Virus record (IMG/VR): IMGVR_UViG_3300031857_023573
Coordinates: 128,001-192,000 of that record
Origin: a virus
Lineage: Duplodnaviria; Caudoviricetes
Length of the DNA stretch: 64,000 nucleotides
Strand: one strand, 5' to 3'
Position numbers and translations under genes: made by a program. The notes beneath the pieces were generated by a model that was given only the letters and a program-made list of their open reading frames with translations, searched no databases and had not been told where the DNA came from. Shown piece by piece: positions 7,735-64,000 of this stretch. Position 1 is the first letter of the stretch; each line of letters begins with the position of its first letter.

Positions 7735-8462
7735 TCCTTTTTAAGCTTTAGAATTAAATCTCCGACTTTGCCCGGCTCATTTTTAGAAAAATGACCCATG
7801 TGTTTTATAATAGTCTCGTCTTTCTCTTTTTCCAATTTAATTTTAGTAAGTTTTTGCTTGCCTAAAATTCTTTTATCTCCTTTACAGGTTTGACAGTCTT
7901 TGCTTCCTAATTTTCCTTGACCGAAACAGAAAGAACATTTATTACCAAATGGATCTTTTCCAGATCCTTCGCAAAAATCACATCCATCATCAGAATCGAA
8001 GATCCCCTTAACATTGCCTTCATCATCTTTAATAACAAATTTGCTTTTTAAGTCTTTTCCTGTGCCATTACAAGTTTTACAAATGACCCATCTTTGATAT
8101 TCTATTGTTCCAGAGAAATTATTATCAACTATCTCAACTATGTTCAAAACTTGATTCTTTTTGAAATCTTCGTATTTTTTATTCTCCTTATCAAAATCAA
8201 AATCAACTGAAACTACATAAAGTTCTTCTAGTTCATTGTAGTCTTTTCCCCATTTACTCTTTCTATCATATTCAATCCTAAGTTCACTATTTGATAAGAC
8301 ACTATAAGCTTCAGAAATAGAGTTAAAAAGTTCAGTATCAACACCAGAATTTTTATCCGGATGATATTCAAAAGATAGTTTGTAGTAGGCCTTTTTTATT
8401 TCTACATCAGTGCTTTGATGTTTGACTCCTAAAACTTTATAATAATTAGTTTGTAAATTCAT
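7731..8462 (-). CDS. Truncated DnaJ-like co-chaperone (J domain + Zn finger, no G/F region, short C-terminus)
   Basis: N-terminal J domain with HPD (YHPDKN); four Cys repeats CKTCNGTG, CDFCEGSG, CSFCFGQG, CQTCKGDK; ends at PGKVGDLILKL. Confidence 0.85.
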   Translation of the reverse strand: MNLQTNYYKVLGVKHQSTDVEIKKAYYKLSFEYHPDKNSGVDTELFNSISEAYSVLSNSELRIEYDRKSKWGKDYNELEELYVVSVDFDFDKENKKYEDFKKNQVLNIVEIVDNNFSGTIEYQRWVICKTCNGTGKDLKSKFVIKDDEGNVKGIFDSDDGCDFCEGSGKDPFGNKCSFCFGQGKLGSKDCQTCKGDKRILGKQKLTKIKLEKEKDETIIKHMGHFSKNEPGKVGDLILKLKKD

Positions 8463-12300: not shown

Positions 12301-14556
12301 TTACTGATATGGAAAAAACGGAAGTGTAATTTTAGTATTTGCGTTATCAGCAAACACCAAATACTTAGAATCATCAGCAATAATATATTGATTAAGGATC
12401 TTATTATGTTCTGATACAGGTATTACTTCAGAGAACAATCTGATATTAGTCATCTTCATATCTGAAGCAAATATTTGAGTATCGATTCCTACCAACTCAA
12501 AATCAACTGGTACAAAAGTTTGACTATCATAATAAACCTTTTCTAACACGGTTGAAGAAAGGAATTTAGCCTCTTCTTCTGCATCAATCTCTACATTACG
12601 CTTATAAATCCACTGATTTAACTTTCTATTTCTTTGATCCACATTCAATACATAGCAATACCAAACATTTTCATATAAGTCAGATGTTGAATAAGTTGAC
12701 CCAGTAAAACTAAACGTATAAGTATCCGAATTAATGTTTAAAGAAATATTATCATTTTTCAAGTTAACTTGCCAACCCAAATTATTCACTGTATCATAAT
12801 TTGTAAGGAAATTATAACTTTCATCTGTCACATAATTATTCAAATTGAACCACATATAAAATCCAATATTGTCCGATACCTTTATTCTTGAATCAACTGA
12901 TTTATAAGTGATCGCAGTTATAGACTGTGTTGCCAATTGGAATCCATTATAGAGTAGATTAGAAAAATCATAATGTTGCTTAGACACAATTGTAGTCGAG
13001 TTTTCAATTAATTCTTTCACAATTTCAGCCTTATACTGAAGTCTAATTGGATCTCTAGTAAGTGGTTGAAGTTGTGGTTTGTTTGCAATCGAGTCTTTAT
13101 CTTGTCTGTTTTCAACTCCGAATAACTCATCAATAGTCGTATTCTTCGTGAGTTCCTTTATCCTATCATTAATTTCATTAGTTGCTGCGATAACATTTGC
13201 AGATTTGTTGTATTTCTTCAATACAACTTTATAATAAATTGCGGCATTATTGAAATTTCTGAACTGTTGAGCATGATCAACAATAAACATTCTATTGATG
13301 TCACAGAAGTAAATTAGGTCTTCTTTTGATGGTCTTCTTTGAACACCAAAAGCTGCCTTAAATGATTCTTTGGTAATATGTATTTCAAAAGAGTCAAAAA
13401 GAGTTAGGTCAAACTGGTTCATTACAATTTGATTATCCGGAAACTGGTTATTTTCAACTGCAACCTTGATTTCCTCTTCACAGACAATATTAAATAGTTG
13501 AAATTCATGAAGAGTATAATCTATACCTTTACCATCTGGATCTGTTACAAAGTATTTAACTCTCCACCCAAATATTTCAATCGAATCATTACTTAGTCTA
13601 TTAAGTAGATTCATAGCTTGTGTTTGTTGGTAAGGATTATATAGCTTAGACTTTTCATCTGCAGTCATTGGTTTTAAAATATTACCAGTTGTACAAGATT
13701 GAGCATCTAACACACCGGTAGTGTTTGCAATCAAGTTACCATTTTCGTCTAAAACTCCATTTGATGTTCCAAGTAAATAAGATTGGCAGCAATCTCTTAT
13801 ACCATAAAGATTAGTCTTTGAATAATCTTGTGTAACATTTTGAAAGTCTCCTATTAAGTTAATATCTTGAATTTTAACACTTGAAGCAGAATTATTTACT
13901 ATTAGATATTCAATTTGAAAAAATCTAATTGGATTAATTCTTTTAGTCGAAATGTTTTCTTTTGTGAATGGTTCCCATTCGGTCCAATTTCTTGAATTAT
14001 CTTGTGAAAATCTGTATAAAAAGTCAACTCCAGATAAATTGTTTGGTGATATTATTTCTATATCAGTTATTGAAAATACTTTGTATATAAATGGTGGTTT
14101 TATTATTCCTTGCTTACCACTTCCAATAATTACATTCTCATTTGATGTGTCTTGTAGAAGTTTACCATTTAGTTCGAATGAAGTAAGTCTTATCTCTCCG
14201 TCTGTTTTTGTACCACTTCTTATAAACTTTATATCGATCCACATTTTATCAAGTGGATCAAAAGGTGGGAAATTTGTTATTTGCTCTTTAAGTTCTAACC
14301 AACTAGTCCAGGTATTCCCATTTCTAGAAATTCTATACTGTGTTTCAAGATATCTTGACTCTAAAACACCAGTTGCTACATAAGAGAAGTTAGTAAACTC
14401 TTCAACCTTTTCTAATTGTATAAAAGAAATAACATACTCATCACCTACTTCATAAAAGTATGGAGTTGCATCACTAGCCGTTGAACCTGCTAAAGTATTA
14501 TAGGACTGAGAAATAATAATACTTCCAGTAGTAAAATCATTTGTAACTTGTGACAT
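12301..14556 (-). CDS. Neck/head-completion protein: T4 gp14-like domain fused to an N-terminal extension and a C-terminal LamG/ConA-like domain
   Basis: Central FDSFEIHITKESFKAAFGVQRRPSKEDLIYFCDINRMFIVDH resembles gp14 (PKEGDLIYFP...LFEI). C-terminal IGFYMWFN...WYCYVLNV...MTNIRLFSEVI has the LamG pattern. Confidence 0.65.
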   Translation of the reverse strand: MSQVTNDFTTGSIIISQSYNTLAGSTASDATPYFYEVGDEYVISFIQLEKVEEFTNFSYVATGVLESRYLETQYRISRNGNTWTSWLELKEQITNFPPFDPLDKMWIDIKFIRSGTKTDGEIRLTSFELNGKLLQDTSNENVIIGSGKQGIIKPPFIYKVFSITDIEIISPNNLSGVDFLYRFSQDNSRNWTEWEPFTKENISTKRINPIRFFQIEYLIVNNSASSVKIQDINLIGDFQNVTQDYSKTNLYGIRDCCQSYLLGTSNGVLDENGNLIANTTGVLDAQSCTTGNILKPMTADEKSKLYNPYQQTQAMNLLNRLSNDSIEIFGWRVKYFVTDPDGKGIDYTLHEFQLFNIVCEEEIKVAVENNQFPDNQIVMNQFDLTLFDSFEIHITKESFKAAFGVQRRPSKEDLIYFCDINRMFIVDHAQQFRNFNNAAIYYKVVLKKYNKSANVIAATNEINDRIKELTKNTTIDELFGVENRQDKDSIANKPQLQPLTRDPIRLQYKAEIVKELIENSTTIVSKQHYDFSNLLYNGFQLATQSITAITYKSVDSRIKVSDNIGFYMWFNLNNYVTDESYNFLTNYDTVNNLGWQVNLKNDNISLNINSDTYTFSFTGSTYSTSDLYENVWYCYVLNVDQRNRKLNQWIYKRNVEIDAEEEAKFLSSTVLEKVYYDSQTFVPVDFELVGIDTQIFASDMKMTNIRLFSEVIPVSEHNKILNQYIIADDSKYLVFADNANTKITLPFFPYQ

Positions 14557-41627: not shown

Positions 41628-43703
41628 CTATCTACCACCTGTCTTAGTCTGTCTATTAGTATTGTTTAGAGCGCCCTTTGCAGTACTAACTGTTTCAGAT
41701 TTTCCAGAAGCCGGTACTTTTCTTCTGGTTACTATTGCGATCTCTTGTTCACTTGGTGGTGATATAATACTTGGTTCGGCACTGATTGGTAATCCAGTAT
41801 CGGTAGGAGTACTTAGACTGTTTAGTAAGTCTTGTATGTTTCCAGCACCGAGACTCTGTGCGGTATCAAGAACAGTATATAAACCAGCATAAATTACATT
41901 TGTCATACCTTGCGCGGTATTGGTTATGTAAAAAATTGGAAATCCCTGATTAAAAGTCTGTTTGATATCTAAAAATCTAGTCTCTGGAATCTTGAACTGA
42001 CAAGCTCCCAATCTTGCAACAGTTTCAGAAGTTATAATTTGAGGAAATTCGTACACTTTGTCATCGGTTTTAATTACTAGTTTAACATCATTACAATTTG
42101 TAAGATCAAAGGGTTCTAGTTGAGTCTCATCTTTTGATTTATTAGCGAGTAAAAACTTAAAAATATTATCAAACGGTTTGATTGCTATTTTTAATTTACC
42201 AATTAAATGATAATTGTCTATTTTGGCTGGTCTGACTACATTTAGTGCCTGTTGTGAAAATGCTGAAATCTGTGATTCACCACCGGTTATCGCAGTGAAT
42301 TCTGGAACTGATACATCGATTTTTGATACTGGATTTCCTCTATTATCTTCTGTGACTGATGCGACTCTTCCGGGTTGAGTGAGTGATCCTGATGATAATG
42401 AGTATGGTACTAGTGAGCCTGGTGATCCTGGTGATCCTGGTGCTAGTGAGCCTGATGTTGAACCATTTGTAGATAATTCTGATCTGCTACCTTCTCTACC
42501 AGTCGTTATAGAGTCCGGAGATTTACCAAGCGTGTCAATTGGCCATCTGTTGTACTGATTTTTGACATAAATTTTAGGTTTAAATGTGTCTCTGACATTG
42601 ATTTTCTTAGTATTTAGAAGATATTTAGATAACTGATCTGGCTTCATACCATAAGATGACTTTCTAGTAACAGTATTGCCACCATCTTTATTGATTAGTC
42701 TCATTTCTACATCAATTATAGCCTTGGTGGTAGAGTATTTAATTATTGGTCTAAATTCTATAATTTCAGTGAAATCGTATTCAATTTTATAAGTATACGT
42801 CTTGGCCTTTATATTTTCTTCAAAAACTGTTACGTCAAATTCTAGATAGTAATCTTTTCCCAATTTTACAGAATTATCGTTGAATATTACAAAATTCTCA
42901 AATCTTCCTTGATAAGTTGGGTATATTTCAAAGTAGTCACCACTTTGCGACTCACCAACAAACAATTGTAAGTCTTCTAACTGTGGTATCTGTGGAATTT
43001 GAAATGTTGACTTTCTTGAAGTAATGTAGTTCTTAGTTCCTGATACTTGAACTATTTTAGTAATAAATCTAAAATCTACAAAAATAGGAGCTGTCTGTGA
43101 TAAGCCTCTAAAATCTGTTAAGTTGTTATTTATAGATCCTAAACTAGGAGCACCACCTTGTCTCTGTCTAGAAAGAGCATAAACAGATGGAATATTTAAT
43201 TCAATATATTTATTCCATAAAATATTTTGATATAAAAGTGGTGATACAGCTGAACTAAGTAAGTTAGATGTAGAAGTATCCGTTGCATCGAAAAAGAAAT
43301 TAGAAAGATCAAAAAACTTTTTATTTTGATAGTCGTAGGTGTAAATTCTTAGATAGATACCTTGATATTCACCGAAATTATAATTAGCTGGAAAATATAT
43401 TCTTGCTCTGTCGTGTCTAACTGCAGCGCTTGGTACATAATCAAAATAACTTAAAAAGTTATACTTTTTACCTTTAGTAGTTGAACTTGTATCTACTTTA
43501 GCATATTTACCTAATGTTGCATCCAGGACAAATAATTGATTCTCTTGAGAATTATTTGTTATTGTAGATTCAAAAGCTTCATATGAATTAATTAAGCCCT
43601 TTGAGTTTTTGATAACTCTATACGGCTCAAGAATTAGATTTGACTTGTCATATCCCCATTCAAGTAGTACATCTCTATGTAGTTTTTTTATTTCGGTTTT
43701 CAT
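41628..43703 (-). CDS. Large hypothetical, probably structural, protein; paralogue of the adjacent gene
   Basis: Shares many aligned blocks with 43733-46369 (see findings); S/G/P-rich internal linker. Confidence 0.6.
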   Translation of the reverse strand: MKTEIKKLHRDVLLEWGYDKSNLILEPYRVIKNSKGLINSYEAFESTITNNSQENQLFVLDATLGKYAKVDTSSTTKGKKYNFLSYFDYVPSAAVRHDRARIYFPANYNFGEYQGIYLRIYTYDYQNKKFFDLSNFFFDATDTSTSNLLSSAVSPLLYQNILWNKYIELNIPSVYALSRQRQGGAPSLGSINNNLTDFRGLSQTAPIFVDFRFITKIVQVSGTKNYITSRKSTFQIPQIPQLEDLQLFVGESQSGDYFEIYPTYQGRFENFVIFNDNSVKLGKDYYLEFDVTVFEENIKAKTYTYKIEYDFTEIIEFRPIIKYSTTKAIIDVEMRLINKDGGNTVTRKSSYGMKPDQLSKYLLNTKKINVRDTFKPKIYVKNQYNRWPIDTLGKSPDSITTGREGSRSELSTNGSTSGSLAPGSPGSPGSLVPYSLSSGSLTQPGRVASVTEDNRGNPVSKIDVSVPEFTAITGGESQISAFSQQALNVVRPAKIDNYHLIGKLKIAIKPFDNIFKFLLANKSKDETQLEPFDLTNCNDVKLVIKTDDKVYEFPQIITSETVARLGACQFKIPETRFLDIKQTFNQGFPIFYITNTAQGMTNVIYAGLYTVLDTAQSLGAGNIQDLLNSLSTPTDTGLPISAEPSIISPPSEQEIAIVTRRKVPASGKSETVSTAKGALNNTNRQTKTGGR
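42412..42453 (-). repeat. Short in-frame 9-bp tandem repeats encoding GSL/SPG
   Basis: + strand reads agtgagcct ggtgatcct ggtgatcct ggtgct agtgagcct. Confidence 0.7.
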
Positions 43704-43732: not shown

Positions 43733-46369
43733 TTATCTACCTCTAAATGAGTTACCACTCATTCCTGATGTTGACGTATTGGGTGATGTCATAATTGGTG
43801 GGGATTGTAAGATAGCCTTAGTAGCATCCCTTGGTTTTGGAACTGCCTCATATATTTGATTATTCTTGATCTTTTCAATTTCTCGTTTATCGAGTGGTAA
43901 AAATTCTCCAACTCTAACTTCACTTTCTACTAATCCAATTCCTTTCCCACTTGCTGTTTTTTTATTAGTCTTACCAGATAAAATGTATTCATCTAAATCT
44001 TGTTTGAATGTTTCCTTTCCACGAACAATAGAGAGATTATCGACCAATACGGAAAACTTACCTATTTTTTCAGTCATAACTCCCGGATCATATTGTCTCG
44101 AAGTGCCTCTCAGGTCACCAAGATAAAGATCTCTTAGTCTATCTGGAGTCAATTTTAGATTTAAACCTTTGAAATATCCGAGTATTAGTTGGAATGTTTT
44201 ATCTGTTTGATCTGACTTATCAACAGCAACTGCTGTTGCAAATCCTTTAGATTTATTTTTAAATTTATTGACTAGGCTAGATAAGTTTTCTTTCTTAGTT
44301 AAACCTAAATCAAGCATCATCTGGGTTAATGCCTTTGTCGGGAGAACTTTTTCGTAGTCTCTTGAAGAATTACCAAGTAAAATTGATTGGGCATAAGCCT
44401 TCCATCTAGGCGCGAAATTAAAGCTTGCTCCAGAGAACCCAGAAGATTTACTAGTTTGATTTGTAGTAGATGTATTTACACCTTTAGGTTTACTTTGACC
44501 TTGTAGAATTGCGTCTCTTACGTCAGTTGTTATGTCAACAGGTTCTTGAACTGTCTTTGTTTGGTTTCTTGCGCTATCCTCGGCTGCTCTATAGTCAGCT
44601 TCTAACTTATTAATATTAGTGACAGAATCAAATGGTAAGAAAAATGCACTATAAACTATAACTTTATTTCCATCTTCGTCTAGTCCGTTAATATAAAAAA
44701 GATCAAATCCTTGATTACTCAATTTTTTTATATCTAAATACGAACCCTGTGGAATTTTGAAAATTACTTTTCCATTTTCTAAGTCATTATATGATGACTC
44801 TCTATAGATACCAAAAGATAGGTCTTTGTTGTCACTTTTAATTGTAATTTTTAAGTCTGTCAGTAGACTGAGATTGTATGGTACTTCTTTAAACTCATCA
44901 GACGTAAGTATTTTAAAAGTAATTAAATTATCAAATGGGTAAATATATGTTATTGCACCATTATTTGGCTGATAAGCTAACCGACCGAAATTTAAAGGAC
45001 CTGGGCCATCATTCACAAAAAAACTATCACCAAAAACACTATAAGGTGACTTAACAAGTTCTAGAATAGGTCTTGTGCCAAATGGATCATCACCAGTAGT
45101 TGACAACATTATAGTTTTCAAACCTATTATTTGTGGTTTTTTTGCTCCTTTTAAGTTTATTTTAGATAGACTTCTAGCATATTTCGAAATATCACCAGCT
45201 CCACCAGAGAAATTACCAGTACCAAGTCTATCGTTAGGTTCTGAACCCATTTTTTGACCACCTCCTTGTAATAATCCGTAAGATGCCTTTCTTGTTATTG
45301 TTGTACCATCAGTAAAATCTATTACCTTCATAGTAACGTCGATCACCGCAGTTGTTGTGGTGAATTTCAATATTGGTCTAAATTCAATTTCTTCACCAAA
45401 GTCATCAAGTAATACAAAATTAGTAGTCTTTGTCTTGACGTTTTTCTCATAAACATCAATCACAAATTCAACGTAATATTTATTACCGTAATAATAAGAC
45501 TCGTCAATCCAATTTTCAAATTCTGCGAGTGTTCCATTATATGTACCATAAATTAAGAAGAAGTCTCCCTGAGAAGATTCATCAATTACTACTCCTAAGT
45601 TTTCAAAGTCTGGTGTTTGTGGAACAACTACAGTTTTCTTGTCGAATAAATTAAAAAATTTACCACCATTTACAGTGTCTATGCTTTCTATAAATTGAAA
45701 ATCTATAAAGACCGGAGCATTTTTAGAGAGTCCAATCCCTCCTGTTAAATTCCAGTTTATTGTATTTTCTTTTGTTACGTTTTGCACCCTCTGGTCTGAA
45801 ATTTTTGTAACGGAGGGTACCTGAATTTCTAAATATTTTCCCCAGGATTTTTCATTCTGATACAACAAAGGAGATGAGAATTCAAGTTTATAATTTTGCT
45901 CAACATCAGTCATATCAAAATAGTAATTAGATATTTCATACTGAAACTTGTCATTAAAATCATAGGTATATACTCTTAGAGCGAATCCTTTAAGTTCACC
46001 AAATGTATAGTCAACCGGAATATGAACCTTTATTTTATCATACCTTATAGGTACAGAAGTTGGGTAATTTTGAATCTGTAAAAACGAGGTCTTCTCTGTG
46101 TCAATAGTATTATCCTGGGATGAAGATGCCGGAACCTTTCCATATCTTGCATTCACTGCATCAATTCTATATAATTGATTATAAAGTGTATTATTAGTTT
46201 GTTTAAACCCTCTTCTAGGTGGATTCTGCTCATCAGCGGAAATAAAACACTTAAACCCATTCACCGTATTTGTGAGGATGTTATAGGGTTCTCCTATTAA
46301 ATTTGCGTCGTCATAGATATATTCTAATAAAATATTCTCATTAATAGTAACGAATTTCGAAGCTCTCAT
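43733..46369 (-). CDS. Large hypothetical, probably structural, protein; paralogue of the adjacent gene with an extra basic C-terminal region
   Basis: 878 aa; preceded by TAATATATA; next to the tail-tube-fold gene. Confidence 0.6.
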   Translation of the reverse strand: MRASKFVTINENILLEYIYDDANLIGEPYNILTNTVNGFKCFISADEQNPPRRGFKQTNNTLYNQLYRIDAVNARYGKVPASSSQDNTIDTEKTSFLQIQNYPTSVPIRYDKIKVHIPVDYTFGELKGFALRVYTYDFNDKFQYEISNYYFDMTDVEQNYKLEFSSPLLYQNEKSWGKYLEIQVPSVTKISDQRVQNVTKENTINWNLTGGIGLSKNAPVFIDFQFIESIDTVNGGKFFNLFDKKTVVVPQTPDFENLGVVIDESSQGDFFLIYGTYNGTLAEFENWIDESYYYGNKYYVEFVIDVYEKNVKTKTTNFVLLDDFGEEIEFRPILKFTTTTAVIDVTMKVIDFTDGTTITRKASYGLLQGGGQKMGSEPNDRLGTGNFSGGAGDISKYARSLSKINLKGAKKPQIIGLKTIMLSTTGDDPFGTRPILELVKSPYSVFGDSFFVNDGPGPLNFGRLAYQPNNGAITYIYPFDNLITFKILTSDEFKEVPYNLSLLTDLKITIKSDNKDLSFGIYRESSYNDLENGKVIFKIPQGSYLDIKKLSNQGFDLFYINGLDEDGNKVIVYSAFFLPFDSVTNINKLEADYRAAEDSARNQTKTVQEPVDITTDVRDAILQGQSKPKGVNTSTTNQTSKSSGFSGASFNFAPRWKAYAQSILLGNSSRDYEKVLPTKALTQMMLDLGLTKKENLSSLVNKFKNKSKGFATAVAVDKSDQTDKTFQLILGYFKGLNLKLTPDRLRDLYLGDLRGTSRQYDPGVMTEKIGKFSVLVDNLSIVRGKETFKQDLDEYILSGKTNKKTASGKGIGLVESEVRVGEFLPLDKREIEKIKNNQIYEAVPKPRDATKAILQSPPIMTSPNTSTSGMSGNSFRGR

Positions 46370-47873: not shown

Positions 47874-48839
47874 TCACATATCTGCGAAGAAATCATCCTC
47901 ATCTTCTGCCTTACTCGAAGAAGATGACGAAGAAGAAACAATTGATTCTTCAAAGTCAAAATCATCTGAAGTTGGTTTTGATTCAGTCTTAGAAGATACG
48001 AATCCTTGTGAAGACTTACCTGTCATAAAACCGATAATCTCATTGATTTTTCCCTGTTGAGTTTCGTCAAGTCTCTTAGGACCGAAATCTTCTAAATCGT
48101 GATCACGATCAACCAAGAAATCTTTAACCATAGTTTGAGCCTTAGCATCAATTTTACCATCTACGAGAGGTGCATTTTTGAAAATACCCTTTTCTTTGAA
48201 GTAAATTGGAAGAGAAGAAGCCTCTGGTTTAAACATAGACATTTTATAGTCTGGATATGTTTCATCACCAGTTTGAATTTCTTTTACCAAAAGAACAAAA
48301 TCCTTACCAGCTGAAAGATCAAATACATTACAAGAAACTCCTGAAATTTCTCCATTCTTTTCTGCTGAAATTTTATCTTTAATAGTCTTTCCGTATTGGA
48401 AAATCATAATTTTACCAACTAATTCAGGTTGTTGCTCGTCTTCAAGTACAAGTACATAAGAGTAATACTTTTTAGAGTATTTCAACATTTTTGCTCTTTC
48501 TTGAAGAATAGCATTTTTAGAATTAGTCAATTGGTAGTAAAGATCACTAAGAGCACACTTTTCACCAAAGTTCTTTGGACTATCAAAATATCCACAAAGT
48601 TCTTTTTGGTTTTTAATGTCTACATAGTGACTAATTTTTTCAAGAGCAAGTTGACCAACTTTACCTTCTTTTGTCAAATTTGGTAGGAATCGAACTACCG
48701 ATCGATATCCCTTTTTCTTGTCTTTTACTTTTGACAAATCAATACGATAGATACCATCAGTATTTGTTTTTGTCTGTTCATTCAAAAAATCCATTTTTGA
48801 ATCTAAATTGCCGAATAAATCATCATTCATTTCTGCCAT
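47874..48839 (-). CDS. Single-stranded DNA-binding protein, T4 gp32-like
   Basis: VVRFLP, EKCALS, KKYYSYVLVLED...GKIMIFQYGKTIKDKI, FDLSAGKDFVL, YPDY; acidic tail SSSSSSSKAEDEDDFFADM. Confidence 0.85.
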   Translation of the reverse strand: MAEMNDDLFGNLDSKMDFLNEQTKTNTDGIYRIDLSKVKDKKKGYRSVVRFLPNLTKEGKVGQLALEKISHYVDIKNQKELCGYFDSPKNFGEKCALSDLYYQLTNSKNAILQERAKMLKYSKKYYSYVLVLEDEQQPELVGKIMIFQYGKTIKDKISAEKNGEISGVSCNVFDLSAGKDFVLLVKEIQTGDETYPDYKMSMFKPEASSLPIYFKEKGIFKNAPLVDGKIDAKAQTMVKDFLVDRDHDLEDFGPKRLDETQQGKINEIIGFMTGKSSQGFVSSKTESKPTSDDFDFEESIVSSSSSSSSKAEDEDDFFADM

Positions 48840-48887: not shown

Positions 48888-48916
48888 ATTTATATCTTAC
48901 CCTATTGAAAAAGTTT
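48888..48916 (-). promoter_or_regulatory. Putative promoter AAACTTT-N15-TATAAAT for the SSB gene
   Basis: Minus strand reads AAACTTT TTCAATAGGGTAAGA TATAAAT. Confidence 0.45.
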
Positions 48917-49507
48917 AGTCAAAGTTGGAGTCAAACTTCCTTGTTCAAAAATTTGACAAAGTTTTCTATACTCATCATCGGAAACTCTCACAAAGGTTCC
49001 TTCAAATCCACATCGTGTCACTGCTTCGCCGGATTTTTCATCGATCCAATCTTCTGTCCACAGAGATTTTACTGGTCTAAATTCAGTTTGTGAGTACAGA
49101 GTTTTTAAACAATCTATTAGAATTGGTAATTTTTCTTTTTTAAATAGATATTCTTCAAAGTGTATGAATAAGAATTCATAACCGGATTCTTTACCAGATT
49201 CAATTAATTTTATTTTGCTTTCAGAGTCTAGATTAATTCTTATAAGTTTCGGACGTGTCGACAAGAAATCCGAACAATACTCTAATCGATGGTTACTTGT
49301 TTCAGTATCTAAAATATTTATCAATTTGTTGGTAGCACTTGACCAGTGCGTATCTTTAAAATAAAGATATCCATAGTCATAATCATCGATAAATGTGTCT
49401 ACTTCATCAGTAAAATCATAAAAGTAACTTTTAATTTCCTCTAAGTCAGGAAATTTGTCACTAAAGTTTTCAGATTCAAAAAGGTTAAATTTTTTTATAA
49501 TCATCAC
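48902..49507 (-). CDS. Hypothetical protein with N-terminal KKFNLFES motif
   Basis: 201 aa; member of the N-terminal motif set. Confidence 0.65.
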   Translation of the reverse strand: MMIIKKFNLFESENFSDKFPDLEEIKSYFYDFTDEVDTFIDDYDYGYLYFKDTHWSSATNKLINILDTETSNHRLEYCSDFLSTRPKLIRINLDSESKIKLIESGKESGYEFLFIHFEEYLFKKEKLPILIDCLKTLYSQTEFRPVKSLWTEDWIDEKSGEAVTRCGFEGTFVRVSDDEYRKLCQIFEQGSLTPTLTKLFQ

Positions 49508-50367
49508 ATTTTAAGTAAAATTTTTAAATCATAATCGTTAATATTTGGCAAATCTGCCTTCCATGGCCAAATTACGTCTTCATAGTCAAGTTCAGATAGA
49601 AGTGAAGGCATAACTTCTTCAAATCGAGTAGTTAATTCTTTTCCATCAATCTGATTATCATAATAAGCACTTATTCCGATATAAATTCCTGGTCTATAAA
49701 GTTCAAGTGAATTTTCTAAGTTATATTTCTGTTTATCATCTAGAAATCTACTAAGAGCTGATTGTGAGATTTTATCAATCTCTTCAATTTTAAATTTAAT
49801 CTTAGATATATTTTTCATAGACCACTTTGGTGAAGTTACATATACTTCATCATATGTTGTTCTTGATAGAAAAGTTCCTGATCTGGCACCTGCACTTGGT
49901 CCTTGTGCAATAAAAAGAGTTGATGAGAGTAAGCCTACCAAAAAATGTGAAATTAAAGACAGTTTCTCTGAGTTATCAATATTTTTACAGGTTATTAATC
50001 CGTTATATCTTCGTAATATATTCGACACATGAATGTCAACGTCAGCATATAGTGTACAAAGTGTCACAAATTTTGATTCCACAAATAGATATTCATCAAA
50101 TATATCTAATAATTTATCCTTTATAAAATCTAAATCGACATTTCCTAAACTTTGAACCAATTTTGTAAAATGACTGTCTATTTTACTCCACTCACCTTCT
50201 CCTAAAAAATGATTTACTTGGTTTTTTAGGTCTGACTCATTAATAGTCGAATTTAACATATATTTTTTGAGTGTATTAAACCACTCATATATAGAACCAA
50301 ACTCTGTATCAGTTCTATCTTGCCACATATCTGACTCTAAGAATGAATTATATTTTTTTATTTTCAT
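49504..50367 (-). CDS. Hypothetical protein with N-terminal KKYNSFLES motif
   Basis: 287 aa; member of the N-terminal motif set. Confidence 0.65.
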   Translation of the reverse strand: MKIKKYNSFLESDMWQDRTDTEFGSIYEWFNTLKKYMLNSTINESDLKNQVNHFLGEGEWSKIDSHFTKLVQSLGNVDLDFIKDKLLDIFDEYLFVESKFVTLCTLYADVDIHVSNILRRYNGLITCKNIDNSEKLSLISHFLVGLLSSTLFIAQGPSAGARSGTFLSRTTYDEVYVTSPKWSMKNISKIKFKIEEIDKISQSALSRFLDDKQKYNLENSLELYRPGIYIGISAYYDNQIDGKELTTRFEEVMPSLLSELDYEDVIWPWKADLPNINDYDLKILLKM

Positions 50368-50906
50368 ATTTCTATGGTTAGATCTGTATTGTTCGGTCTA
50401 GTATAAATAACTTTATTTACATTATTAAAATTATACTTATAATTTGGATCACAATATTTCTTTCCACATCCTGGTTTAGTATAAGCAAGTGTTATATGTG
50501 GATTATATTCTGGATACTTATCACTATTTGGAATACTAGACTTTAACTTATTATGTAAGTTAAGTAGATTATCATTTCGATCAACATTGAATTTTACAAC
50601 ATCATATTTAGGATTTTCAAAAAGGTCTATACCGTTAATATTCACTTCTAACTTATCTTTTAGAACTTCTCTTAAAATCGATTCTACTTCACTAACATCA
50701 ACGACACTTGTCACTGGGTAAAGTAGAGTCAAATGTGGGTGTTCTTGAATGCCATAGTTGTCACCTTCAGTTTCTTGATATAAATCATCTGGATTTATTT
50801 GTGATGTCAAGTCTTTCCAATTTTCGACTGGTACATGAACCATCACACATCCGTGATCATATCCTTGTGACTCTAGAAATTTTTCATATTTTAATAAAAA
50901 CTTCAT
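50364..50906 (-). CDS. 2H phosphoesterase (Acb1/T4 57B-like or LigT-like) with N-terminal KYEKFLES motif
   Basis: Two HxT motifs: HPHLTLLY and YNPHITLAY. Confidence 0.8.
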   Translation of the reverse strand: MKFLLKYEKFLESQGYDHGCVMVHVPVENWKDLTSQINPDDLYQETEGDNYGIQEHPHLTLLYPVTSVVDVSEVESILREVLKDKLEVNINGIDLFENPKYDVVKFNVDRNDNLLNLHNKLKSSIPNSDKYPEYNPHITLAYTKPGCGKKYCDPNYKYNFNNVNKVIYTRPNNTDLTIEI

Positions 50907-50907
50907 A

Positions 50908-51420
50908 CTATTTTAATTTAGTTTTGAAAGGACTCTTCAGGTGTTTAAGATTCCATCCAGGAATAAAATCTTTATTCTTTTTTTCAAAATCTTCATAAGA
51001 TTCAATTCCACTATCTACACAGTTTCTCTCGTATCCTAAGTTTGCTCCTTTTAATTTTGGAACACGGTCATCAATAGTAGTTGATTTTGTTGCTTTTCTT
51101 ATTTTTTCTAACTGCTTTACAGTTGATTCTCTCGGAAGTGCGCCTTCATTTTCTGACATAACAACTTCAATTGTACCATCTTCTTTAAATTTAGCGAAGT
51201 GAAATCTATCAACTATTGGTAATACTTTACCGACTAATTCTGATTCAATACTTTCTGGGCCAAAAGATTTAATAAATTTTCTACCGTTATCGTCTATAAC
51301 GAAGTCAAAATCTTGACCTGGATTTTTTTCAATAAGTGCTTTTATTCTGCTTTTTATTGATATAAACTCGTCAACTTTAGCTCCTTTGTAAGCTTTAAGT
51401 CTTGCTCTGATAATTTTCAT
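50908..51420 (-). CDS. Hypothetical basic protein
   Basis: 170 aa; first gene after a TAATATATA motif. Confidence 0.6.
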   Translation of the reverse strand: MKIIRARLKAYKGAKVDEFISIKSRIKALIEKNPGQDFDFVIDDNGRKFIKSFGPESIESELVGKVLPIVDRFHFAKFKEDGTIEVVMSENEGALPRESTVKQLEKIRKATKSTTIDDRVPKLKGANLGYERNCVDSGIESYEDFEKKNKDFIPGWNLKHLKSPFKTKLK

Positions 51421-51445: not shown

Positions 51446-51454
51446 TATATATTA
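51446..51454 (-). promoter_or_regulatory. Putative late-promoter motif TAATATATA
   Basis: Exact motif 25 nt upstream of ATG 51420; heads the run containing three N-terminal-motif proteins. Confidence 0.45.
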
Positions 51455-54453: not shown

Positions 54454-56259
54454 ATGAGAGACCTAATTATTGAAATGGCGAATAGAAATATAGGATCTTT
54501 AGTTTTATTTTTAAAAAATCCTAAAAATCATCTTTACATAGAGTATATAAATAAAAATATACCTATTGAGGTACAAGATTTACAAACATCAGAAAAAATA
54601 TATTACTTTGTTAATGATTTAAAGAGTATACATCTCTGTAGTTGCGGGAAACACAAGTCTTTCATTGGATTCAAAAATGGATATCGACAAACTTGTGGTG
54701 ATATGAAGTGCACAGTTAATAAAAGGAGAGAAACATGTATTCAAAAATGGGGTGTGGATAATCCGAAAAAATCTAAAGAGGTTATTGATCGTGAAAAACA
54801 GAATATTTTAGATAAATGGAATGGTGATCATTACATGAAAAATGAACAAGTGAGAAAAAAGTTCAATAGTACAATGGTTGAAAGATGGGGTGTCGAATGG
54901 GCTCAACAATCTGAAGAGATATCAAATAAAAGTAGAGAGACTTTTGAGAATAATGATAATAGAGAACAAATAATTGAAAATAGAACCAGTTCACTAATTA
55001 ATAAATCGAAATCAGAAAAGAAACAAATAGAGCAGAAGAAAAAGAAGACAATAGAAGATAAATTTGGAAGTTACGATAATTTTGTAAATTTTAGAAATGA
55101 TAAAATAAGACAAAAATCTTTGAAAAATTGGGGAGTTGATCATCACTTGAAAAGTAAAGAGATCATTGATAAACGTATTGAGTCTTATAAATTCAATATT
55201 GTTTCGAAAATTAAAGAGAACTTACCAGAAAATATCATCTTTATTGACAAGCGGGAAAATCTAAATAAGACTGATTCAGTTTTAAGATTTATGTGTAATA
55301 ACTGTTCAAATGAATTTGAAATGAATAGACAATTGTTTCAATTCAGAAAACTATCTAAAGAAGAAATTTGTATTAACTGTAACCCAATATTGGTTGGAAA
55401 ATCAAAGAAAGAAGGAGAAATTTTCGAATTTATTAGTCAGGTCTATAGTGGTATAGTTCTAAGAAATCATAAAGGTATAATTTCTAAAGAGCTCGATATA
55501 TACATACCTGATTTGAAGTTATCATTTGAATTTAATGGACTTTATTGGCACTCAGAGCTTTATCGAGATAAAAATTATCATCAAGAAAAGTCTAAAGAAT
55601 GTATTAATAATGGTATAGAACTAGTACACATCTGGGAAGATGAGTGGGACTTCAAAAGTGAAATAATTAAATCGATGATACTAAATAAATTAGGATCATC
55701 GAAAAAGATATGGGCGAGAAGTTGTGAAGTCAAAGAAATTGAAGATAACAAATTAATTACTGAATTCTTAAATAAAAATCATATCCAAGGAAGTGTCGGG
55801 TCCAAATATAAAATTGGTCTATTTTATAATGATGAATTGGTCTCGTTGATGACATTTGGTAATCTAAGAAGATCATTAGGCCATAAATCTAAGACTGATC
55901 ATTATGAATTAATTAGGTTTTGTAACAAATTAGGAGTGAGCGTTATCGGAGGTGCTTCTAAATTACTGAGTTATTTTATAAAAAAATATAATCCAGTAGA
56001 ACTACTAAGTTACTCAGATAACTCAAAAGGTCTAGGTGGTCTTTATGAAAAACTTGGATTTGAACTAGTAGGTGAAACTGAACCAAACTATTATTGGGTA
56101 GTGGATGGCTTTAGAAAACATAGATTTAACTTCCGAAAAGACAAGTTAGTCAAAAATAACTTTGATAAAAATAAGTCAGAAGTTCAAATTATGACAGAGA
56201 TGGGATATTATAGAATATTTGATTGTGCTAGTAAAAAATGGTCAAAAAAAATAATTTAA
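54454..56259 (+). mobile_element. Free-standing homing-endonuclease-like gene (Hef/Vsr-like nuclease domain with WGVxx DNA-binding repeats)
   Basis: Repeats KWGVDNP, RWGVEWA, NWGVDHH; CSCG and CxxC...CxxC Zn motifs; ELDIYIPDLKLSFEFNGLYWHS...LVHIWEDEW nuclease core; C-terminal domain ending RIFDC. Confidence 0.75.
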
Positions 56260-56307: not shown

Positions 56308-57420
56308 ATGAAAACTATTGGTCTATGTATGATTGTAAAAAATGAGGCTCACGTTATCACAAGATGTATTGAGTCAGTAAAAAGAATCATAGACTATGTT
56401 TTAATTGTCGATACTGGTTCAGACGATGGAACTCCTGAGACAATTCAGAATTGGTTGGTAGAAAATAATTTTCCTGGACAGGTGGTAATTGAACCTTGGC
56501 AAAATTTCGCCTATAATCGTTCTTTCGCACTTGCAAAATTAAGAGAAGTCGAGCATATTGATTACGCATTAATGATTGATGCTGATGAGATATTGGTTTT
56601 CAATGAAGACTTTAATCCTGAATCTTTTAAAGAGTCACTTTGGGCGGATATCTATGACATTACCACTAATATGGGTGGTTTCATTTATAAAAGGCCTCAG
56701 CTTACTTCAAATCGTAGAATGTCGAAATATGATGGTGTAGTTCATGAGTTTTTATCACTTGAGGATGGTGGGTCAAGAGACCATGCAAATGGATTTCACA
56801 ATAGTCCAATTCAAGATAGTGCAAGAAACAGAAGTGGAAATAAATTTGAAAATGATGCTAAACTTCTTGAAGAAGCTCTGAAGGGTGATATTTCAGATTG
56901 GTTCAGATCAAGATATACCTTTTACTTAGCACAGTCTTATAGAGATTCTGGTAGACCTGAGTTGTCATTAGAAAAATATTTAGAAAGAGCAGACCAAGGT
57001 TTTTGGAATGAAGAAATTTATGTGAGTCTATATAACGCTGGAAATATCATGAAAGGTCTAAACTATCCGAAGGATCAAATTCTTCAGACTTATTTAAGAG
57101 CGTATGAGGTTTGTCCTCATAGAGTTGAAGTTCTTCACGCGGCCGTACAATATTGTAGAATTCACGGTATGAATCAGCAAGGATATATGATCGGAAAACA
57201 TGGTATAACAATTCCCCTTACTGATACATCTCTTTTTGTTGAGTCATGGGTTTATGATTATGGACTACTTGATGAATTTTCGATTGTTGCTTTTTGGGCA
57301 GGTCATTTTGAAGAGTCTAAAACTGCCTGTGAGAGACTCTTAAACGAAGGTAAAATCCCGGCACATTACATGGACAGGGTTAAATCAAACCTACAATTTG
57401 CCATTGACAGGCTTAGTTAA
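56308..57420 (+). CDS. GT2 glycosyltransferase with C-terminal TPR-like repeats
   Basis: [40 protein letters not shown] (DxD), [17 protein letters not shown]. Confidence 0.88.
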
Positions 57421-58465
57421 AATTCTCTGATTCTTTTAGAGACATTAGAATTTCCCTCTCATTATCATTAATTTGTTGAGGAACTTTCAAATTCATTTTA
57501 ATGAATAAATCTCCTGTTTGACTATTGAAATTTAAGTCGGGTACTCCTTTTCCAGTAACTCTGAGCACTTTTCCGTGAGTTGTTCCTGGTTGAACAGAGA
57601 ATTTGATATCACCTTGAGGTGTTTTCAAGAAAACTTCTTTTCCTAGAATAGCATCGACAATATTGATATCTTGTTCATAGACAAGATTATTATTCTCTCT
57701 CTTGAAATTTTGATCTGGAATTTCTTCTACGGTGACTAGAAGATCACCCGGTATACCACCTTTCACAGCATTTCCAAACTGATTTAAATTAAATGTTGCC
57801 CCATTAAATGATCCTTTTGGTATTTGAATATCTACGGTTTCTTCTTTTGGTATAACACCTTCTCCTCTACAGTTATTGCAGTTTGTTCTTACAATTTGTC
57901 CAGCTCCGTTGCAAGAATTACAAACAACTATTTGTTGAATTACACCAAATGGTGTATTTTGAACAATTTTTCTTTGACCAGAACCATGGCATACTCCACA
58001 AGTGGTTAAATCTTTTCCTCCGACACCATCACACATTGTGCAACTGGTGTGTCTGTTGTATTTAACTTTTTTTGAAAGACCGTTTATTACATCTTGTAAA
58101 GTAACGGTAACTTTCACTCTTAGATCTTGACCTTTTCTAGTCTGTGGTCTTTGACGGCCTCCTCCGCCAAATCCAAAAAAGTCTCCAAATCTAGAGAATA
58201 TATCATCCATACCAAATCCAGAGAACGGATTGCCTCCTCCGTGATTATCACCAACTGTTCCATAAGTATCATATTGTTGTTTTTTCTGAGGATTTGACAA
58301 AACGTCAAATGCCTCAGCACACTCTTTGAACTTTTCTTCAGATTGAGCGTCTCCAGGATTTTTATCTGGATGATATTTCATAGCTTGTTTTCTATAAGCC
58401 TTTTTAATATCATCAGCAGATGCTGATCTGTCAACTTCTAATATTTGATAGTAATCTTTACTCAT
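57413..58465 (-). CDS. dnaJ: Canonical type I DnaJ chaperone
   Basis: J domain with HPD, G/F region ([10 protein letters not shown]), four CxxCxGxG repeats, full C-terminal domains. Confidence 0.95.
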
Positions 58466-62133: not shown

Positions 62134-64000
62134 TTATTTTACTTCTTCAAAAGCTACGTCTTCTGCTGCCTGTTCCTGTGGATTTTGACTCACTGGTTCT
62201 TCAGTCTGAGTTTGTGAGTAAAGTTTAGTAGAAATTTTACTCCAAACTTCATTCAATTTAGTCATTTGTTGGTCAATTAACTCTAAATTCTGTTCTTTAT
62301 GTGCAGTTTTTAGTTCATCCAAAACAGAATTTAATTCTGACTTATCTTCATCAGTCAACTTTTCTCCAAACTCTGACATTTGTTTTTCAGTTTGAAAAAT
62401 AATATTATCTGCCTGATTAAGCTTATCAATTTTTTCCTTTTCGATTCTATCGGATTCAGCATTTGCTTCAGCATCTGCTTTCATTCTTTCGATTTCTTCT
62501 TTAGAAAGCTGTGACCCACCTTCAATTCTGATTTTATTCTCTTTACCAGTTGCCTGATCTTTTGCAGTTACTGAAAGAATACCGTTAGCGTCGATATCAA
62601 TTGTACACTCAATCTTTGGAACACCACGAGGAGCTGACATGATACCATCTAGGTGGAATCGACCAAGTGATCGGTTATCACGAGACATTGGTCTTTCGCC
62701 TTGAAGTACGTGAATTTCTACAGATGGTTGGTTATCAGATGCAGTTGAGAAAACCTCTGATTTACGAGTTGGGATTGTTGTGTTGGCCTCAATCAATTTT
62801 GTAAAAACACCACCCATAGTTTCAATTCCAAGTGAAAGTGGAGTTACGTCGAGAAGGAGTACATCAGTAATATTACCAGTCAAAACTGCTCCTTGAATTG
62901 CTGCTCCAATTGCTACAACTTCGTCAGGATTAACCGATTTGTTTGGTTTTTTACCGAAGTTCTTTTCAATAGCTTCTTGAATTGATAGAATACGTGTAGA
63001 TCCGCCAACTAAGATAATTTCATCAATGTCTGCAGATTTAATGTTTGCTTTTTTCAAGGCTGTTTTTGCACATTCAATTGCTCTATCAACAAGTGATGAA
63101 GTCAATTGATCAAACTTTGAACGTGTAAGTTTCTTTACAAAGTGAAGTGGCATACCATCCTTAGCGGTAATATACGGAAGATTGATTTCGCTCTCTGTTG
63201 TAGAACTTAGTTCAATTTTAGCCTTTTCTGCGGCCTCTTTCAATCTTTGAAGAGCCATAGGATCTTTAGAAAGATCCATAGAGTTTTCTGATTTGAATTC
63301 ATCAACCATCCAGTTAATAATCGCGTTATCAAAGTCGTCACCACCAAGATGAACATCACCATCAGTAGATTTAACTTCAAATACACCATCTCCGATTTCA
63401 AGAACTGATACATCATGTGTACCACCGCCGCAGTCAAATACTAGGATTTTAGCGTCTTTATTTTTCTTGTCTAGACCATATGCCAAAGCCGCAGCTGTTG
63501 GTTCGTTGATGATACGTTCTACTTCAAGTCCAGCGATTTTGCCGGCTTCGATGGTAGCGGTTCTTTCGGCGTCTCCGAAGTAAGCTGGTACAGTAATAAC
63601 CGCTCTTTTTACCTCAAATCCAAGATAGTCTTCGGCGGTTTTCTTCATTTTCTGAAGAATCATAGCTGAAATTTCTTGAGGGGTATATTTTCTATCATCT
63701 ACTTCAACTGCCGGAACATTTGAGTCGGTAGATACTACTTTATAAGGTACTCGCTTAACTTCATCTTTACAGTTATTGAAATCTTTTCCAATAAATCTCT
63801 TAATTGAGTAAACTGTTTTTGTTGGATTGGTCACTGCTTGTCTTTTTGCAGGATCTCCAATTTTTCTGTCTTTGTCTGTGAATCCGACAACTGATGGAGT
63901 TGTACGTTTTCCCTCTGAATTACTGATGATAATTGGTTCACCATTTTCAACAACAGCTACCGCTGAGTTTGTGGTTCCAAGATCAATTCCTAAAATTACA
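62134..64000 (-). CDS. dnaK: Hsp70 chaperone DnaK (start just beyond the window edge)
   Basis: Frame is open to the edge: [12 protein letters not shown]...GKRTTPSVV; [16 protein letters not shown], linker [13 protein letters not shown]; C-terminus [10 protein letters not shown]. Confidence 0.97.

Follow-up and report, generated by a model that had tools for sequence, protein, structure and literature searches.

The window, meaning the whole analysed stretch of 64,000 nucleotides (positions 128,001 to 192,000 of the virus record IMGVR_UViG_3300031857_023573), carries a gene for a 180-residue protein which is a catalytically intact 2H phosphoesterase, as judged from its conserved residues. This 2H protein starts with a short peptide, MKFLLKYEKFLES, hereafter called the tag, which recurs at the N-terminus of unrelated proteins and belongs to a family of peptides resembling the capsid-targeting sequence (CTS) of phage T4. 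The explanation proposed here, held at a little under even confidence, is that the 2H protein would be a counter-defence enzyme packaged in the phage head and carried into the cell by the virion. A first-pass annotation had described the gene as Acb1-like and as possibly delivering an enzyme directed against CBASS, the antiphage signalling system that is based on cyclic oligonucleotides. If the protein is packaged, this would be an example from nature of a counter-defence enzyme, acting on nucleotides or RNA, that a phage brings into the cell upon injection; if not, the gene would be an ordinary accessory 2H phosphoesterase gene. The delivery of injected 2H domains was predicted for polyvalent proteins by Aravind's group in 2017 and, to our knowledge, has never been shown.

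The window has a G+C content of 30.7% and its source is a very large T4-related phage. The closest relatives are the uncultured phage genomes LR745206, LR756502 and LR756504 (635–642 kb), in which the gene order around the 2H gene is kept. Identity to LR745206 reaches 76% for gp32 and just 46% for the 2H protein.

The 2H enzyme and its clade

Two HxT motifs had been noticed in the 2H protein by the first-pass annotation and both were found intact, with H58 and T60 in HPHLTL and H137 and T139 in NPHITLAY. H58 is the same residue in all 96 homologues that were aligned, and conservation is at least 90% for each of T60, H137 and T139. The protein matched the Pfam family PF13563 with 50 bits (cut-off 27) and, over one half-domain only, LigT_PEase (PF02834) with 31.7 bits (cut-off 23.3); its PHROG match was phrog_755, labelled 'RNA ligase'. 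An AlphaFold2 (AF2) model built from the 96 homologues reached a mean pLDDT of 85 and a pTM of 0.81, only residues 1–15 lying below 50. Using Foldseek and VIA-align, every structural match was a 2H enzyme, with Z-scores of about 10–13.5 over approximately 150 residues. Pfam, the AF2 fold and the catalytic tetrad are in agreement and support the assignment as 2H phosphoesterase.

The structural comparison with Acb1 and LigT, which had been suggested as a check, supported the 2H fold but revealed no preference for Acb1. The Z-scores were 13.5 for Usb1, 13.0 for YjcG, 12.9 for E. coli LigT, 12.8 for Pyrococcus PH0099, 12.7 for plant CPDase, 12.0 for AKAP18, 11.4 for Acb1 (7T26, 131 of 137 residues aligned) and 10.9 for the phosphodiesterase (PDE) of phage BCSR5. 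Acb1 thus did not outrank Usb1, LigT, YjcG or CPDase, all of them lying within about 2 Z units. When the family profile was compared with PDB sequences, PH0099 (E 1.5e-5) and 2FYH (E about 1e-5) were also ahead of Acb1 (7.5e-4).

The 2H protein is a relative of Acb1 inside the 2H superfamily, and not a member of the Acb1 family. The relationship is visible with hhalign, which aligned the protein with T4-type Acb1 at a probability of 95.6% (E 1e-8, 82 columns) across both HxT motifs and placed the invariant F96 opposite W74 and Y131 opposite F107 of Acb1. These are two of the four base-stacking aromatics (Y12, W74, F107 and W147) of Acb1, in which E141 contacts the adenine and a flexible C-terminal lid, residues 145–152, shuts on the ligand (Hobbs et al., PMC9117128). 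The hhalign match covers residues 40–122 of Acb1 only, leaving Y12, E141, W147 and the lid outside the alignment. The C-terminal 35 residues of the 2H protein, a GCGKKY loop followed by three strands, are unlike Acb1 and were not aligned by hhalign; they may form a lid of another kind. The Acb1 model PF23474 matched only residues 83–144 with 23.7 bits, below its cut-off of 27 (the orthologues in the relatives score 22–30 bits), and BLASTP with T4 Acb1 gave an E-value of 0.003 over 28 residues. In a quick maximum-likelihood tree comprising solely Acb1 and the target clade, eight Acb1 sequences formed a long branch separate from the 159 members of the clade (SH-aLRT 99). Membership of the Acb1 family is rejected because of the weak BLASTP match, the unalignable lid, E141, W147 and Y12, and this separate branch. 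For comparison, hhalign to enterobacterial ThpR/LigT gave a probability of 6.9% with a shallow alignment. The label 'Acb1-like' is weakly supported. The hhalign match and the two shared aromatics speak for it, and the Pfam cut-off, the BLASTP match, the tree, the unalignable lid and E141, and structural Z-scores without a preference for Acb1 speak against it.

A metagenomic variant of 156 residues (P0002, from a JGI contig) is otherwise identical to the 2H protein and is devoid of 24 residues (about 109–132) between strand 6 and the second motif. A natural deletion may account for this gap, or else an artefact of the assembly.

With a threshold of E ≤ 1e-3 an exhaustive homologue search yielded 3793 cluster representatives, and with E ≤ 1e-10 the number was 1274. 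Most clade members are stand-alone proteins of about 180 residues, while 62 of the 161 top members are multidomain. According to Pfam, 15 of these 62 contain domains of CCA-adding enzymes (PolyA_pol head, RNA-binding, tRNA_NucTran2_2), and in P0064, P0112 and P0047 the 2H domain begins directly after the CCA-adding enzyme. The same position is occupied in E. coli Cca by an HD phosphodiesterase domain. The other Pfam partners among the 62 are ART-PolyVal, ADP-ribosyl exotoxin, Mom, portal, RES, DUF3990, GNAT and NUDIX; a recurrent domain of about 136 residues beside 2H shows a weak match, below cut-off, to the IrrE-like Peptidase_M78. The orthologue of LR745206 is a fusion of 438 residues consisting of tag, 2H and a DEDDh exonuclease of the RNase_T family, a layout which is also found in P0022. 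In the tree, the target belongs to a subclade of 26 members made of tagged stand-alone proteins and fusions with N-terminal 2H, including the exonuclease fusion, and the CCA-fused 2H domains are found chiefly in a subclade of their own (8 of 10 rows). The clade is the 2H group that Iyer et al. (2017) reported both as a part of 'polyvalent proteins' and in phage genes of its own; they predicted that these domains are delivered with the DNA and function as Usb1-like RNases or as degraders of immune nucleotides (PMC5512222). The CCA-adding and RNase T-like partners point to work on RNA 3' ends at least as much as to signal degradation.

The tag as a possible capsid address

The peptide was found as the first-pass annotation had described it, and recurs on unrelated neighbours. 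Including the 2H gene, 5 of the 70 open reading frames (ORFs) in the window have such N-termini (the others at 48902, 49504, 53066 and 60519), versus 0.9% of internal 16-residue windows (binomial P = 4e-4, with a regular expression drawn up after viewing the data). Like peptides also head unrelated neighbour ORFs in the relatives. In the whole genome of LR745206, 102 of 921 ORFs are tagged compared with 0.86% of the internal 16-residue windows (P about 1e-76), and the same pattern applied to T4 as a control retrieved 6 of 255, including IPII and IPIII. Among 99 stand-alone 2H homologues the tag was recognized on 40 with a strict pattern and on 71 with a loose one; it is missing from some orthologues (Maribacter phage Molly, P0011, P0012). 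The linker between the tag and strand 1 is variable in length, and where the 2H domain is internal (P0029, P0049) the tag is still located at the N-terminus of the protein. Most tagged proteins of LR745206 have no Pfam family. Among those with an annotation are the 2H-exonuclease fusion, an RNA ligase of the Rnl1 type and an enzyme of the PolyA_pol/CCA type, besides two NUDIX proteins, a DHH protein, a peptidase and methyltransferases.

At the tag positions, synonymous codons are used as in the whole genome; Ser is encoded by TCN as well as by AGT, and Arg may stand in place of Lys. Selection therefore acts on the peptide. A DNA-level cassette made of promoter and first codons was considered and ruled out by the same codon use. 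The tag also exists in dialects. In a 425-kb phage the 2H protein and three unrelated neighbours start with MKQRIPTLxEFINES, and a second, shorter dialect reads MKYLKxFNES. Such co-variation within a genome would fit a signal adapted to a receptor that is particular to the phage. The 425-kb phage further contains two almost identical tandem ORFs of 176 residues (MKQRIPTLDEFINES and MERRIPTLDEFINES; L046:7891-9243) and a third tagged ORF, which suggests that a cargo-like gene was duplicated recently. In LR745206, a tagged ORF of 129 residues (L042:3002-3391) lies immediately 3' of the major capsid gene, and thus within the head cluster; judged by its sequence, its product is probably the NFACT-R RNA-binding-domain protein of the tagged set.

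In T4, IPII and IPIII start with MKTYQEFIAE and IPI with MKTFKEF. The first ten residues of the CTS are enough to load foreign proteins into the T4 head and are then removed by gp21 (PMC8442874; PMC3012670). Mutational work assigned targeting to residues 4 and 7, and processing to residues 8 and 10 (PMC9026906). The consensus of the 2H-family tag, M-x-I-K-K-Y-x-x-F-I-x-E-S, displays an aromatic residue, a second aromatic at +3, Ile or Leu at +4 and Glu at +6, which are the four T4 positions. All four are found both in this consensus and in the tag of the LR745206 orthologue, MKLKKYKQFIKES. The pattern [FY]..[FY][IL].E derived from the four positions was detected at 22 N-termini of LR745206 versus 3.7 expected (P 7e-11), including those of the 2H-exonuclease orthologue and the RNA ligase. 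Of its 49 internal matches in that genome, 10 are located in a single protein, a protease-scaffold fusion, while any other protein has at most two.

This fusion (LR745206 198546-200669; L007:1522-3435, L042:3-1163) combines an S77-like protease domain with a scaffold-like region of about 14 tandem repeats of 14 residues, NIAYSEYIAENLDK (N-I-A-Y-S-E-Y-I-A-E-N-L-D-K). In the relatives the repeats conform to Y-S-E-Y-[IL]-A-E, and every repeat has an I/L-x-E site of the T4 type. Behind the repeats comes an acidic tract, and the gp23 gene is situated directly downstream. The head module of the relatives is composed of a phrog_213 portal, the S77-like protease domain and gp23 (89–96 bits). Protease-scaffold fusions with Y-[ST]-E-x-[IL]-A-E repeats were identified in two more large phages that possess tagged 2H genes (G001 and G002; L050, L049). 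T4 gp22 itself starts with MLKEQLIAEA and contains WLAEN, so that a resemblance between CTS and scaffold has a precedent. The apparent identity of the tag motif with the repeat unit of a protease-scaffold protein is new here.

Two observations were made on T4 itself. A 54-codon ORF of NC_000866 (18966-19130, minus strand; L052) starts with MKTFKEFIKED, a near-perfect CTS-like N-terminus. T4 Acb1 (57B, L004:3953-4411) starts with MMEFKDFSTG and the adjoining ipI product (L004:3592-3879) with MKTFKEFTST, F-K-[DE]-F-[ST]-[ST] being common to both. We know of no case of Acb1 packaging. The Acb1 homologue of phage G is absent from the virion proteome of that phage, which is of a different lineage and therefore has no bearing on the present gene.

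The 2H gene belongs to a run headed by the promoter-like motif TAATATATA. Eight sites of this motif were found in the window (9334, 11340, 14561, 15932, 46394, 51446, 54383 and 60489), seven of them 4–28 nucleotides (nt) before an ATG, and the genes behind them include a gp13-like neck gene. In LR745206, 148 of the 191 copies lie at most 60 nt upstream of an ORF on the same strand, whereas such zones represent about 5% of the genome. ORFs headed in this way comprise those of the portal, the protease-scaffold protein, a gp13-like and a head-decoration-like protein, and at least 39 tagged ORFs. The short distance to the ATG implies very short leaders, or none, in the predicted transcripts. The T4 late-promoter consensus TATAAATA was not enriched before genes, neither in the window (21 sites versus 14.5 expected) nor in LR745206 (42 of 295 upstream of ORFs). 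No PHROG families were found for the large motif-preceded ORFs of the window at 43733-46369, 41628-43703 and 12301-14556.

Packaging of the 2H protein in the virion is plausible, the balance lying slightly in its favour, because of the T4-like residue spacing, the likeness to the scaffold repeats and the promoter-like motif common with portal, scaffold and neck genes. The capsid-targeting function proposed in the first-pass annotation is in this way supported indirectly, also by the genome-specific dialects, but the tag of the window itself does not follow the strict T4 pattern. Its residues are Y7, F10, L11 and E12, with the Glu one position early and Phe instead of Leu or Ile at P3. In T4 terms, such a protein might be targeted but poorly cut, or might be cut at F-L-E/S. 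Several further points weigh against packaging. The match of the S77 protease is weak (20–25 bits, below cut-off), and the evidence on scaffold and protease all comes from the relatives, whose gp32 is 76% identical. Tags on about 11% of the genes would amount to a cargo list without precedent in known phages, and the tag could mark something else. The orthologue of Maribacter phage Molly is untagged although the capsid of Molly is of the gp23 type. Concerning timing, late expression of the 2H operon, as supposed in the first-pass annotation, may only be inferred. The motif TAATATATA also stands ahead of a UvsX-like gene and the 2H gene run goes on into gp32, so that the term 'late' is not secure. 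In the literature searched, no papers tying the capsid-targeting sequence to megaphages or huge phages were found.

Possible roles and rival explanations

In the packaging scenario, the 2H gene would be transcribed together with virion genes from the late-type promoter TAATATATA. The flexible N-terminal peptide would dock the protein on the prohead scaffold by mimicking the tandem repeats of the latter, and a gp21-like protease may clip the tag after Glu (FLE/S). The 19-kDa enzyme would be retained in the head and enter the cell along with the DNA, where the His-x-Thr tetrad would cut or open a ribose-phosphate linkage as counter-defence. More generally, megaphages of the same T4-related lineage might load about a hundred proteins into the prohead via N-terminal peptides imitating the scaffold repeat. 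Their cargo would then include a counter-defence kit delivered before phage expression and comprising the 2H phosphoesterase, the Rnl1-type RNA ligase, the CCA-adding-type enzyme, NUDIX enzymes and the DHH enzyme. This generalization is offered tentatively, with the chances somewhat against it.

Doherty et al. (2025, bioRxiv 10.1101/2025.08.21.671373) found a great diversity of substrates among viral 2H enzymes, with some structural groups cutting none of 18 tested messengers; the fold alone therefore does not settle the substrate. RNA or tRNA 3' ends with a 2',3'-cyclic phosphate are the candidate given most weight, at clearly less than even confidence. Cyclic or 2'-5'/3'-5' oligonucleotide immune signals, as for Acb1, are a possible substrate but a more doubtful one, and a Usb1-like trimming of host RNA is improbable.

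The first of these substrates corresponds to an RNA end-healing 2',3'-cyclic phosphodiesterase that would ready the 3' ends of cut tRNA or RNA for trimming, CCA re-addition or ligation as a component of a tRNA-repair set, the question of the tag being separate. This role is conceivable, if on the doubtful side. It is favoured by the CCA-adding enzymes in 15 of the 62 multidomain members, with 2H directly behind in three, by the closest relatives, in which 2H is fused to an RNase T-family exonuclease, and by the Rnl1-type RNA ligase and PolyA_pol/CCA-type enzyme in the tagged set of LR745206. RNase T is known to trim tRNA 3' ends. A role for 2H enzymes in clearing cyclic ends is also given by surveys of jumbo phages (PMC7824862). 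However, the CCA-fused 2H domains belong mostly to their own subclade and not to that of the target, hhalign to E. coli ThpR/LigT gave the low probability mentioned above (shallow alignment), and Pfam and PHROG searches of the window identified no ligase or kinase gene adjoining the 2H gene. Furthermore, Iyer et al. saw no link of such 2H domains with RNA ligases and favoured RNase or signal-degrading roles (PMC5512222). An Acb1-type nuclease, pre-packaged or not, that destroys the cyclic oligonucleotide signals of CBASS or type III CRISPR was regarded as rather unlikely. Besides the hhalign match over both motifs and the F96/W74 and Y131/F107 pairs, it is supported by 41 of the 62 multidomain members, which match the Acb1 Pfam model, some of them above cut-off, and by the fact that the gene is the sole Acb1-like one in each related genome. 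The fused exonuclease, of the Orn/RNase T type, would finish linearised oligonucleotides, and viral 2H enzymes beyond the Acb1 group degrade immune nucleotides (bioRxiv 10.1101/2025.08.21.671373). This role is opposed by the Pfam score below cut-off, the short BLASTP match, the long separate Acb1 branch (99% SH-aLRT) and the absence of an alignable counterpart to the lid, W147, E141 and Y12. The PDB profile search put archaeal LigT-like proteins (E 1e-5) above Acb1, whose structural Z-score is also lower than those of Usb1 and LigT. Of the seven structural groups of viral 2H enzymes that were purified and assayed in the bioRxiv study cited above, two cut none of the messengers tested.

Two other explanations concern the peptide. 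It might be no capsid address but another trait common to late accessory proteins, for example a sorting, turnover or chaperone signal, or reflect a need of near-leaderless translation, in which case the enzyme would have to be made in the infected cell before it could act; this was judged rather unlikely. It would account for the tagging of about 11% of the ORFs, an implausibly long cargo list by T4 standards, and for enzymes in the tagged set that are not found in T4 virions, such as the Rnl1 ligase. Many tagged ORFs also begin 4–6 nt past TAATATATA, and their mRNAs may be nearly leaderless. On the other hand, codon use indicates selection on the peptide and not on the RNA, and genes in the middle of operons, among them the 2H gene, are tagged too. 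The conserved positions are the four that matter in the T4 CTS, internal copies of the motif are abundant in the scaffold protein and in no other, and the same 2H clade has other predicted routes into the virion, namely portal and polyvalent fusions. Alternatively, the N-terminal 13–15 residues could be the substrate lid of the enzyme itself. In PDE-9 of Burkholderia phage BCSR5, residues 1–15 form a lid that shuts on the substrate (bioRxiv 10.1101/2025.08.21.671373), and the AF2 model of the 2H protein shows a short helix at tag residues 7–12. This alternative is very improbable and was rejected as the main explanation, as the same peptide heads about 100 unrelated proteins and, in the 425-kb phage, its dialect shifts along with that of neighbours of other families. 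The tag moreover stays at the protein N-terminus when 2H is internal (P0029, P0049), untagged orthologues exist, pLDDT is below 50 and the linker length is variable.

Packaging by means of the tag, the preferred explanation, would have consequences beyond this gene. The tag offers a testable mechanism, as an address peptide that may act through scaffold-repeat mimicry, and a possible way to read the injected proteome of a megaphage directly from its sequence. The clade holds thousands of uncharacterised members between Acb1 and the RNA-repair 2H enzymes. Their substrate, once known, would reveal the host defence whose early disarming matters most to these abundant freshwater phages.

Gene run, surroundings and comparison with known systems

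The coordinates of the 2H gene, its elements and the genes of its run are given in Table 1. The whole run is tight and on the same strand, with a single base between the stop of the 170-residue ORF and the ATG of the 2H gene.

Table 1. The 2H gene and its run in the window
Feature	Position	Strand	Remark
2H phosphoesterase gene: tag, short linker and 2H core	50364..50906	-	180 residues, ATG start
N-terminal tag, residues 1-13, MKFLLKYEKFLES	50868..50906	-	pLDDT <50 for residues 1-15, outside the fold
First catalytic HxT motif, H58-L59-T60 (HPHLTL)	50727..50735	-	aligns with Acb1 H44/T46
Second catalytic HxT motif, H137-I138-T139 (NPHITLAY), in YPEYNPHITLAY block	50490..50498	-	aligns with Acb1 FDDYTPHITLSY, Y131 facing Acb1 F107
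Promoter-like motif TAATATATA at the head of the 2H gene run	51446..51454	-	25 nt before the first gene
170-residue ORF, first gene of the run, untagged	50908..51420	-	upstream neighbour of the 2H gene
Tagged 287-residue ORF (MKIKKYNSFLES), ATGA overlap with the 2H stop	49504..50367	-	syntenic tagged orthologues in two relative loci (L001, L002)
Tagged 201-residue ORF (M-MIIKKFNLFES), overlaps the 287-residue ORF, followed by gp32	48902..49507	-	N-terminal pattern
gp32 gene, after the 201-residue ORF in the run	47874-48839		PF08804, 61.5 bits

No Pfam or PHROG family was matched by the 170-residue ORF. Its C-terminal module, LPRxxTVxQLxKxRK ... GIESYEDFEKxNKxFxPxWNLKHLxSPF, is conserved in several settings (window 50908-51420; L001:3031-3666; L002:4330-4857; P0049). 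It is untagged in the window, follows the tag and a zinc-ribbon-like segment in LR745206, and lies between tag and 2H in the homologue P0049; frequently it stands directly after an I-N-E-S site. Elsewhere in the window, an ORF of 601 residues similar to homing/HNH endonucleases (54454-56259, plus strand; phrog_3339, 392 bits) has a gp13-like gene on one side and a glycosyltransferase-like ORF on the other. Judged from their N-terminal translations, the ORFs at 62134-63663, 57413-58465 and 7731-8462 encode one protein resembling DnaK/Hsp70 and two resembling DnaJ. Near-identical DNA was found mainly in lake and freshwater metagenomes (14 studies), and none of the sequencing runs listed as holding such DNA was an RNA run. 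A scan of IMG/VR for relatives retrieved only two, at 39% identity, neither of them being the phage of the window itself.

Compared with known systems, the elements of the proposed explanation are partly of kinds already described, namely the CTS cargo of T4 and the 2H domains whose injection was predicted in 2017. What is new is that the gene could be assigned to the 2H clade of polyvalent proteins, whose partners include CCA-adding enzymes and an exonuclease, and that the promoter links it to head genes. The tag shares with the CTS of T4 IPI-III (Mullaney and Black 1996; PMC3012670, PMC9026906) a length of about ten residues, the extreme N-terminal position on unrelated proteins and, in its consensus, the spacing of Y4, F7, I8 and E10. 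The relatives also have a T4-type head module, and cargo genes differ between close relatives. In contrast to T4, there are about 100 tagged genes per genome and not a handful, an additional shorter dialect occurs, and in the relatives the S77-like protease domain forms one protein with a scaffold-like region whose tandem repeats resemble the tag.

Acb1 (T4 gene 57B; Erwinia phage FBB1, PDB 7T26/7T27) has the 2H fold, the HxT/HxT tetrad and the [FY]P[DE]YxPHIT[LI][AS]Y block at the second motif in common with the 2H protein, but the core of the latter is larger (about 165 versus 140 residues) and displays a conserved GxGKKY loop. LigT/ThpR enzymes (E. coli ThpR, Pyrococcus PH0099, PDB 1VDX, 5LDM) resemble it by their full-size 2H fold (Z 12.8–12.9); the best sequence-profile matches in PDB, PH0099 and 2FYH, are of this kind, and the CCA-adding partners of the clade suggest end-healing. 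They differ by the weak hhalign match to ThpR and by the context of the second motif, which in the target is Acb1-like and not LigT-like, and the target clade is specific to phages and has the sort of fusions that characterize conflict systems. PDE-9 of BCSR5 (PDB 9Q2G/9Q2Y; Doherty et al. 2025) is another 2H enzyme of viral origin that does not belong to the Acb1 group, and its N-terminal extension is functional (Z 10.9), but its first 15 residues are a lid, whereas the peptide of the target is common to unrelated proteins. The 2H domains of polyvalent proteins (Iyer, Burroughs, Anand, de Souza, Aravind 2017, J Bacteriol, PMC5512222) belong to the same sequence clade, with 32–46% identity, and members of it occur with ART-PolyVal, portal, Mom, RES, M78-like peptidase and CCA-adding domains. 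Unlike these, the target is a free 19-kDa protein, for which entry into the head is predicted to occur by means of a T4-type N-terminal peptide and not by a portal/MuF or polyvalent fusion.

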